NCBI RefSeq assembly: GCF_003018255.1
Contig: NZ_CP027440.1
Strand: one strand, 5' to 3'
Length of the DNA: 64,000 bases
Source: Escherichia coli
Lineage (GTDB): Bacteria > Pseudomonadota > Gammaproteobacteria > Enterobacterales > Enterobacteriaceae
Shown here: positions 55,634 through 56,670 of the stretch, in pieces
How the letters are laid out: each line of letters opens with the position of its first letter
Position numbering within the stretch: position 1 is the stretch's first letter
Translations under genes and position numbers: made by a program
The notes under the pieces: generated by a model
What the model was told of the DNA's origin: nothing
What the model saw: only the letters and a program-made list of their open reading frames with translations
The model's database searches: none

Positions 55634-56237
55634 AGGCATGGTTATGCCATACAGAAAGCACCAGCATTCAGAACTCCTGTGAAAGCGGCGTAGTGCCACC
55701 TGCTCAGGAGTTTTGCTATGACCCGTAATCGTGCTGACCGTTGCCACCCTATGATGCGATTAAAAAAACTCATCGTCGCGCCGATGATTGACGTCAATGC
55801 TATCGGATGATACCGGGGGTGTTCCGGAAGGAATTCCTTGTTTCCCGAACTGTTACCAACAAAATTATAACGATAAGCAAGTAAAGACCGGTTGGTGGCA
55901 GTACTGACCGGTCTGTGATGGATGATTAATTTCACCTTAAATCCTGGTGCTGTTAGGATGCTGACATTTTTCGGCTACACCATTCAGATTATGCAAATAA
56001 AGATCCAATCAAAAGATAAATATCCCTGAATATAATATATTTATAGCACCCATATCTCATCCTGGGCGATAACCCAACCATTTTTGATTAACAAATGAAA
56101 CAACTGCAACGTTCTTATTATTTCTGGAAAACGTCTCGCAAAAACAAAACAGCATGCAAAAATCCGCTTTTTTTAAATGATTTTTCGGCGTAATTTTCGC
56201 ACATACATTAATGAGTAATATATGTAAGGTATTGGTA

Positions 56238-56456
56238 ATGGCGATGAATACGGTTTTTCTTCATTTATCAGAAGAGGCAATTAAACGGCTGAACAAGCTT
56301 AGGGGCTGGCGTAAGGTTTCACGATCTGCAATTTTACGCGAAGCGGTTGAGCAATATCTGGAGCGGCAGCAATTTCCGGTGCGTAAAGCAAAGGGTGGCA
56401 GGCAAAGGGGGGAGACAGTAGTTGTTGATGATCAGTGTAAGGAGCATAAGGAATGA
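56238..56456 (+). CDS. yiiE: Ribbon-helix-helix (CopG-like) small DNA-binding protein YiiE (about 72 aa)
   Basis: ORF-track frame 56211..56456; start placed at MAMNTVFLHLSEEAIKRL; position upstream of fdhE. Confidence 0.7.
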   Translation: MAMNTVFLHLSEEAIKRLNKLRGWRKVSRSAILREAVEQYLERQQFPVRKAKGGRQRGETVVVDDQCKEHKE

Positions 56457-56670
56457 CAAAAAATTTATTATTCTTGAATATAAAAACCAGATGCCCTTAT
56501 TCTGGTATTAATACAAAGCTGTTTTACTTGAACTTATAATAACTGCAACTGTTACATCATATCTGGAAAACGCCTCGCGAAATACGAGAGATTTTGCGGG
56601 AATAGCAGGTGTCGTCATACCCTATGAACTGTAATCCGGGCGACCAGCGCCACCCGGAAAACGTCAGAGA

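Follow-up and report, generated by a model that had tools for sequence, protein, structure and literature searches.

Predicted CRP-S cores in a duplicated promoter block of Escherichia coli, and the probable orphaning of one copy by a vapBC deletion

The yiiE-fdhE region and its repeated block

The window, by which we mean the whole 64-kb stretch of E. coli DNA that was analysed, carries the following genes around the block under study:

53894..54802, minus strand: alpha/beta hydrolase gene (Abhydrolase_3; Pfam E=1e-68), divergent from site A (see below)
55031..55633, plus strand: toxin-first pair, made up of a 103-aa ORF (55031-55342, weak RelE-like match) and a gene for a NadS-family HTH protein (55343-55633)
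56238..56456, plus strand: yiiE, 72-aa ribbon-helix-helix (RHH, CopG-type) protein (Pfam RHH_1 E=1e-11; RefSeq annotation of identical loci)
56671..57600, minus strand: fdhE, 309-aa ORF, a convergent core gene downstream that marks the limit of the variable region (RefSeq annotation)

The NadS assignment comes from an equivalog match of 60.7 bits (cut-off 60). In K-12 MG1655 two RHH genes, yiiE (b3889) and yiiF (b3890), stand in tandem between fabY/yiiD and fdhE, as they do in BL21 and many other strains, whereas the window holds yiiE only. The earlier note on this DNA had given yiiE and yiiF as tandem paralogues in K-12 and had taken yiiF to be absent here; the b3889/b3890 order and 52% identity between the RHH domains bear out the former, and the strain alignments, in which the whole yiiF segment is missing from the window, the latter. 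The arrangement in K-12 differs from that of the window, yiiF being present there. The identity between YiiE and VapB/YiiF extends over 44 aa of the RHH domain (E=3e-14), and the regions upstream of yiiE and vapB/yiiF can be aligned over ~250 nt at modest identity. Given the shared RHH domain and the alignable upstream regions, the two genes are tandem paralogues that were copied together with their promoter. One match (H29) looked like a plasmid copy of yiiE, but the record contains the entire chromosomal stretch fabY...fdhE.

A repeat search of the region returned a single direct repeat of 45 nt (56099-56143 and 56538-56582), with 78% identity between the copies and a spacing of 439 nt. The degenerate pattern derived from both copies matched only these two places in the 64 kb and gave 0 matches in 100 dinucleotide-preserving shuffles. 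The imperfect repeat that the earlier note had seen around yiiE is thus real, and it withstood the shuffled-sequence control for degeneracy proposed there; its placement about 35 bp upstream of yiiE was too close, the 3' end of copy 1 lying 95 nt before the annotated yiiE start (ATG 56238). Within the repeat lies a 21-nt core, TCTGGAAAACGYCTCGCRAAA, which reads TTTGCGAGGCGCTTTCCAGA on the opposite strand and is identical between the copies at 20/21 positions. A search with this core allowing <=3 mismatches, for which shuffled sequences gave a mean of 0.01 matches, located a third copy at 54890-54910 (TCTGGAAAGCGCCTCGCAAAT). This third copy had been missed by the earlier note. The sites, lettered here in the order in which they occur, are as follows:

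54890..54910, plus strand: third core copy, predicted CRP-S site A (core 54892-54907, TGGAAAGCGCCTCGCA, 0 mismatches)
56099..56143, plus strand: repeat copy 1 (45 nt), 5' of yiiE, holding predicted CRP-S site B
56125-56140: predicted 16-bp core of CRP-S site B, TGGAAAACGTCTCGCA (other strand TGCGAgacgttTTCCA), 0 mismatches to TGCGA-N6-TTCCA
56538..56582, plus strand: repeat copy 2, the probable orphaned control block of a lost vapB(yiiF)-vapC operon, holding predicted CRP-S site C
56564-56579: predicted core of CRP-S site C, TGGAAAACGCCTCGCG, 1 mismatch to TGCGA-N6-TTCCA

An Rfam scan of 54700-56800 (E<=1) gave no RNA family, and a scan for sigma-70 and terminator consensus sequences gave nothing at the motif itself, its only match being a proximal sigma-70-like promoter (TTGTTA-16-TATAAT, 55002-55029) that ends one base before the ATG of the 103-aa ORF. 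No paper turned up when full texts were searched for the motif strings. Read as a LacI/PurR-type, marbox, hix/gix or canonical CRP site, the motif fitted poorly when compared by eye with the respective consensus sequences.

As the whole upstream regions of the two paralogues are alignable at modest identity, shared blocks are to be expected by descent, and the repeat could be a neutral relic without function, left by the tandem duplication of yiiE and vapB. Yet the near-complete identity of the core contrasts with ~60% in the surrounding duplicated DNA (a visual estimate) and 52% in the proteins, and it recurs at unrelated loci and in other genera with unalignable flanks; a neutral leftover is in our opinion very improbable. 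The identity of the core inside a diverged duplication rather points to selection on it, and the repeated block is the best-conserved part of the tandemly duplicated yiiE and vapB/yiiF promoter region.

Resemblance of the core to CRP-S sites

CRP-S sites are non-canonical CRP sites where activation by cAMP-CRP requires the competence co-activator Sxy (TfoX) as well; they are asymmetric, require both of their differing half-sites and are functional in either orientation (PMC6728893). For E. coli, Sondberg et al. 2019 quote from Sinha et al. 2009 the motif T4G5C6G7A8-N6-T15T16C17C18A19 (PMC6728893). Searched on both strands of the 64-kb window, TGCGA-N6-TTCCA has two perfect matches, which are sites A and B, and site C departs from it at one position. 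The half-site TGCGA, with C at position 6 where the canonical site has T, is found on the minus strand at sites A and B, and the second, weaker half-site TTCCA, 6 bp away and giving an asymmetric 16-bp core, is found at all three. Among E. coli strains, variation in site B is confined to the 6-nt spacer (ACGTCT, ACGCCT, ACACCT).

The resemblance also holds against validated members of the class. The autoregulatory CRP-S site of K-12 sxy (AATTTGCGAGGCTCTTTCCGAAAA) is identical to site A at 18/21 positions, spacer included, and this near-identical sxy-promoter site has been validated by mutation as a CRP/Sxy site (PMC6728893). The K-12 promoters of ppdD (attTGCGAggcgttACGAA) and ybaV/comEA (tttTGCGAggcggcTTCAG) have tttTGCGAggcg in common with site A, and that of yifB/comM (tttTGCGAgcatcaTTCCA) shares TGCGA-N6-TTCCA with it. 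In K-12 the motif precedes each of yiiE and yiiF, and both of these sites match the CRP-S consensus perfectly. We read the conserved core (20-22 bp) as a predicted CRP-S site, at which cAMP-CRP would activate only together with Sxy, and not as a YiiE operator. Dependence of the window promoters on Sxy and CRP is predicted from these likenesses.

The operator had been offered in the earlier note, which allowed for a conserved YiiE operator used twice; the block would then be an autoregulatory operator of the RHH proteins YiiE and YiiF, kept before each paralogue. Autoregulation is common among RHH antitoxins, and the position of the motif before both RHH genes of K-12 is what such an operator would give. 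The same core, however, precedes genes of unrelated, non-RHH families (sxy, ppdD, comEA, comM, Gp49/HTH, RelB/ParE, 103-aa/NadS, PTS and alpha/beta hydrolase), so that it does not appear to be specific to cognate RHH promoters; it is asymmetric and matches exactly the published consensus of another factor; and it lies ~95 nt from the start codons, 5' of the inferred -35 and not over the core promoter. On this evidence an RHH operator is very unlikely.

The core might also be taken for a sigma-54 promoter, whose consensus is -24 GG / -12 GC (TGG-N9-TCGC), and the GG-N10-GC spacing does fit TGGAAARCGYCTCGCA. Binding of the sigma-54 holoenzyme to such an element finds no counterpart in K-12 ChIP-seq data (PMC4591121), where the text and 8 supplementary files give an intragenic site in fdoI but none at yiiE or yiiF. 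Moreover, the element may face either way with respect to its neighbouring genes, no gene for an enhancer-binding protein lies nearby, and genetic work has identified the near-identical sxy site as a CRP/Sxy site (PMC6728893), all of which makes a sigma-54 promoter extremely improbable. The fdoI sigma-54 site is itself conserved in the window (58063-58079).

The predicted CRP-S sites A and B are each followed at the same distance by a -10-like hexamer:

54958-54963, plus strand: -10-like hexamer TAAGCT, 50 nt past core A, ahead of the 103-aa/NadS pair
56191..56196, plus strand: -10-like hexamer TAATTT, starting 50 nt past the site B core

In K-12 a TANNNT hexamer likewise stands 50-51 nt past the core at sxy (TAAGTT), yifB (TAAAAT), yiiE (TAATTT) and yiiF (TACTTT), and in other genera it follows the site at this distance wherever the cassette is vapBC or 103-aa/NadS. 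Overall, 13/38 enterobacterial sites have TANNNT at 50-51 nt, compared with 1/24 non-enterobacterial pattern matches. Sites without a downstream cassette have no hexamer, and some core loci (the clpA, PTS and cybC groups) are also without one at +50. Taking the transcription starts from these hexamers, which are weak, would put the centre of the site at about -70.5, a class-I-like position. Class-I-like contact has been reported for Sxy-CRP promoters (PMC6728893), and a centre at -70.5 fits it.

In the full texts within reach of our literature search, Sxy and yiiE or yiiF are nowhere named together. As the K-12 sites are perfect, yiiE and yiiF are likely to be already published members of the E. 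coli Sxy regulon, the subject of Sinha et al. 2009. A genomic SELEX study of CRP (PMC3105977) does not mention yiiE or yiiF, which is weak evidence because low CRP affinity is expected without Sxy.

Loss of vapBC and the allelic states of the locus

In comparisons of the window with BLAST-selected strains, similarity extends to the 3' edge of the second motif copy and stops precisely there. A junction-spanning query reached the locus of strain EC17GD31, which reads yiiE, motif, an 80-aa RHH gene (the yiiF orthologue), a 124-aa VapC in which a PIN domain was found, and fdhE. When EC17GD31, BL21 and the window are aligned together, the allelic history resolves into three states. The first has an intact vapB-vapC operon, and vapC DNA is present in 57/5426 complete E. 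coli genomes. In the second, of K-12 type, REP-containing DNA stands in place of vapC codons ~5-107 and yiiF remains; the K-12-type segment is present at >=80% in at least 3596 genomes. In the third, that of the window, 663 nt are missing, beginning just past the motif and ending close to where vapC ends, and this junction is contiguous in 677/5426 complete E. coli genomes (~12%). The alignment shows that K-12 yiiF is an orphaned VapB antitoxin, and K-12 itself is a decayed state in which vapC was replaced by REP elements. The junction of the window and what lies beyond it are placed as follows:

56576..56584: deletion junction, 663 nt missing relative to the intact vapBC allele, with imperfect microhomology CGC(A/G)AAATA
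56578..56634, plus strand: non-functional vapC 3' remnant, last 18 codons and stop (translation RNTRDFAGIAGVVIPYEL*)

The intact VapC ends in ...TRNTRDFAGIAGVVTPYEL*, the same C-terminus as that of the remnant. Because this remnant is in frame, it is very unlikely that the yiiF-less junction is ancestral to the vapBC-bearing alleles. An RHH antitoxin gene followed by a PIN toxin gene, the order of a VapBC operon, is not found in the window, where the 18 terminal vapC codons are all that persists. The earlier note had proposed that the second copy was lost while its control region was retained, which agrees with the absence of yiiF/vapB beside a persisting upstream block; the short ORF that it had noticed after copy 2 has no meaning of its own, the real remnant being these 18 codons. 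The loss is also larger than had been supposed, comprising the entire vapB(yiiF)-vapC operon and starting at the 3' edge of the motif.

The two arms of the junction microhomology are CGCAAAAATA (left) and CGCGAAATAC (right). In the window strain the G from the vapC-side arm alters the last position of the motif (CTCGCG instead of CTCGCA), and in STN0717, which carries the same deletion, the A has been kept. On the other strand the strong half-site of site C consequently reads CGCGA in the window and TGCGA in K-12, BL21, EC17GD31 and STN0717.

We consider it probable that the repeat is a duplicated promoter block with a CRP-S core, that the window has three such sites and that site C was orphaned by the vapBC deletion. 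Site A would act from its position between the divergent hydrolase gene and the toxin-like/NadS pair, site B would serve yiiE, and site C would formerly have served the vapB(yiiF)-vapC toxin-antitoxin operon. The 663-nt deletion between the short imperfect repeats CGC[A/G]AAATA removed vapB and nearly all of vapC, leaving site C, with its CGCGA half-site, beside the 18 vapC codons and the end of fdhE. With an altered half-site and neighbours of this kind, site C would be a non-functional relic. The missing yiiF is an ordinary strain polymorphism, a common deletion allele, which for genome annotation means that its absence from ~12% of complete E. coli genomes is not an assembly problem.

Conservation of site A, toxin-antitoxin cassettes and comparison with known systems

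A palindrome accompanies site A. The LexA consensus is CTGT-N8-ACAG, and a similar sequence lies between the site and the hydrolase gene:

54819..54834: LexA-box-like palindrome CTGTATGAATGTACAG, 17-32 nt 5' of the hydrolase start

Across genera, the gap between this box and CRP-S core A is 57 nt in 9/10 loci and 56 nt in the tenth, and the intervening sequence is unconserved. The order hydrolase (minus strand), site, variable cassette, fdhE is syntenic in Citrobacter, Atlantibacter, Phytobacter, Franconibacter, Superficieibacter, Enterobacter and E. coli, and the core of site A is invariant in seven genera between flanks that cannot be aligned. The content between site A and fdhE may be vapBC, the 103-aa/NadS pair (which also follows the site in C. 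amalonaticus), a remnant or nothing, and the site is kept even when nothing follows. We infer that the hydrolase promoter, at least, includes site A, which probably works in both directions, the alpha/beta hydrolase being a likely second target. Such two-sided action would be compatible with the orientation independence documented for CRP-S sites.

Because similarity between alleles and between genera is lost precisely where the core ends on its 3' side, one could instead take the core for a site of site-specific recombination, or a cassette boundary, at which toxin-antitoxin (TA) cassettes are inserted or excised in integron-like fashion. Three tandem units each start with the core and the cassette content is variable (vapBC, 103-aa/NadS, nothing), as that supposition would have it. 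No recombinase is associated with the core, however, and there is no second site or target duplication at the far ends of the cassettes. The deletion is explained by ordinary microhomology, with its other arm inside vapC, and persistence of the core in cassette-less genomes by the fixed distance of 57 nt between it and the divergent hydrolase promoter. A recombination site is on these grounds highly improbable.

A scan of one genome per species with the exact pattern TCTGGAAARCRYCTCGCRAA returned 58 loci, of which ~31 are in Enterobacteriaceae and 3 more (L008, L039, L042) lie on contigs that resemble E. coli but are filed under unrelated taxa; the pattern was derived from the window, and core identity among the cross-genome matches is partly by construction. 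At the enterobacterial loci the core is intergenic and occupies several unrelated positions, and in orthologous alignments it forms an island of identity between unalignable flanks. It adjoins type II TA cassettes at four separate enterobacterial loci: a Gp49-family toxin and HTH antitoxin at both clpA-infA (one genome) and ilvA-ilvY (E. albertii, E. whittamii), a RelB antitoxin at nrdG-cybC in Escherichia (with a ParE-family toxin too in one strain), and VapB/VapC at the fdhE locus. With the RelE-like/NadS pair included, the adjoining TA cassettes belong to four families. The core also occurs near PTS genes.

Links between Sxy and TA modules have been reported before. Overexpression of Sxy in E. 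coli reportedly induces the chpSB and higBA TA operons as well as hokD, and promoter P1 of hicAB has a CRP-S site (PMC11951105); toxTA of Haemophilus influenzae (HI0660/HI0659) is a CRP-S-regulated TA operon (bioRxiv 10.1101/633164). The regions upstream of higB and hicA have TGGAA-N6-TTCC(A/T) and no TGCGA half-site, and the sequence rules of Sxy-dependent TA promoters are therefore not uniform. Tentatively, and with the odds in our view against it, CRP-S sites might be conserved, often bidirectional anchors at hot spots for small cassettes, where TA modules have repeatedly been placed under Sxy. The hot spots would be the hydrolase-fdhE gap, clpA-infA, ilvA-ilvY and nrdG-cybC, and the TA families at least four (VapBC, Gp49/HTH, RelB/ParE and RelE-like/NadS). 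Were this true, the DNA-uptake programme and TA modules would be functionally linked in a general way. On the same view, the unusually conserved spacer and flank (TTTGCGAGGCG..TTCCAGA) common to unrelated promoters could be a feature read by Sxy-CRP.

The CRP-S element type is already well described, and current understanding of it is unchanged by our data. What they provide is a testable regulator (CRP with Sxy) for three uncharacterised small-gene units, namely yiiE, the yiiF/vapB remnant system and hydrolase/103-aa/NadS, and sequence-level examples of a connection between the competence regulon and TA modules that has been reported but is poorly understood.

Compared with the CRP-S sites of the E. 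coli Sxy/CRP regulon (Cameron & Redfield 2006; Sinha 2009; Jaskolska & Gerdes 2015; Sondberg 2019), the sites in the window have the same half-sites and 6-bp spacer, are likewise asymmetric and found in either orientation, and, where a -10-like hexamer follows (sites A and B), lie at a distance from it that equals that at sxy and comM. Two of them differ from the known sites in their setting. K-12 lacks site A and the hydrolase/103-aa/NadS genes, which K-12 studies of the regulon therefore cannot have covered, and site C is without a gene and has its strong half-site altered to CGCGA. As in hicAB P1/P2 of E. coli and toxTA of H. influenzae, a distal CRP-S site would lie 5' of a small type II TA-like operon. 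The 103-aa/NadS pair further resembles hicAB P2 in being toxin-first with a proximal sigma-70-like promoter abutting the toxin start, which suggests from sequence a similar two-promoter logic, whereas the protein families differ, being RHH/PIN and RelE-like/NadS here as against HicA/HicB and ToxT/ToxA. Among VapBC systems, the intact allele (E. coli EC17GD31, Enterobacter, Franconibacter, Superficieibacter) encodes an 80-aa RHH VapB (=YiiF) and a 124-126-aa PIN VapC, whereas the window has neither gene, only the 18 terminal vapC codons, and K-12 has the antitoxin gene yiiF only. YiiE, in turn, is an RHH paralogue of VapB that differs from it in having an unrelated C-terminus and no toxin partner.

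Structural alleles between yiiE and fdhE

In K-12 and BL21, REP-containing DNA stands in place of most of vapC, the gene for the PIN toxin partner of the antitoxin VapB (compared with locus L065, 2185-2559); only the first few and the last ~15 codons are recognisable, and this 3' remnant carries an internal 15-nt deletion. The yiiF gene of these strains (locus L001, 2499-2735, in BL21; L066 in K-12) is an orphan VapB antitoxin. A further arrangement was found on NZ_CP170376.1 ('plasmid unnamed02', 169 kb; L067), a plasmid-labelled record that carries the chromosomal fabY-hydrolase-nadS-yiiE...fdhE region; either the replicon was wrongly assigned or the record may hold a large piece of the chromosome. 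Between yiiE and a yiiF-like gene, its ST131-like allele has two genes on the minus strand, including one for a DUF6708 protein. IS1 insertions inside the yiiE-fdhE variable region of E. coli strains 500111 and B19374 (matches H1 and H31) represent an additional structural allele. Sequence from the E. coli yiiF region, including the motif, also occurs on short contigs assigned to 'uncultured Clostridiales', Bacillus coahuilensis m4-4 and 'uncultured Robinsoniella' (L008, L039, L042), which look like E. coli contamination of those assemblies.

Conserved sites in other genera

In Atlantibacter (L033) a decayed RHH coding remnant (...KRRELSHETLLHEAIEQYLD) directly follows the conserved site, and the sequence at the same position in C. 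freundii (L051) is unrelated to it; from these sequences, the cassettes look like they decayed independently at one shared hot spot. The same CRP-S-like core, resembling the site used by CRP with the competence co-activator Sxy, also occurs at nine loci of Kosakonia, Enterobacter, Leclercia and Silvania (L009, L012, L030, L037, L043, L046, L047, L049, L061), with a large lipoprotein gene on one side and a PTS EIIC gene on the other; toxin-antitoxin genes were absent at these loci. There, a canonical-looking CRP site, TGTTA-N6-TCACA, is found ~30 nt downstream of the core, followed by the 20-bp palindrome TAACGTAACATGTTACGTTA.

Candidate promoter elements in the window

Predicted regulatory elements
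54819-54834: LexA-box-like palindrome CTGTATGAATGTACAG, 17-32 nt 5' of the alpha/beta-hydrolase start (gene 53894-54802, minus strand)
54978-54992: perfect palindrome TACGTCAATGACGTA, 5' of TTGTTA-16-TATAAT
55002-55029: predicted promoter TTGTTA-16-TATAAT, ending one base ahead of the start codon (ATG) of the toxin-like 103-aa ORF
58063-58079, minus strand: exact copy of CTGGCGCGAATTCTGCA, within fdoI

The sequence within fdoI corresponds to IS47, an intragenic binding site for sigma-54 that K-12 ChIP-seq reported upstream of fdhE (PMC4591121). The LexA-box-like palindrome is kept across seven genera, and its distance to the CRP-S core (site A, 54892-54907) is 57 nt in nine of ten loci and 56 nt in the tenth; this conservation and the constant gap suggest dual control of the hydrolase promoter by SOS and Sxy/CRP. 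Judged by its position, a transcript initiated from TTGTTA-16-TATAAT would start within the 103-aa ORF, an arrangement that resembles promoter P2 of the hicAB toxin-antitoxin operon, which gives antitoxin only.
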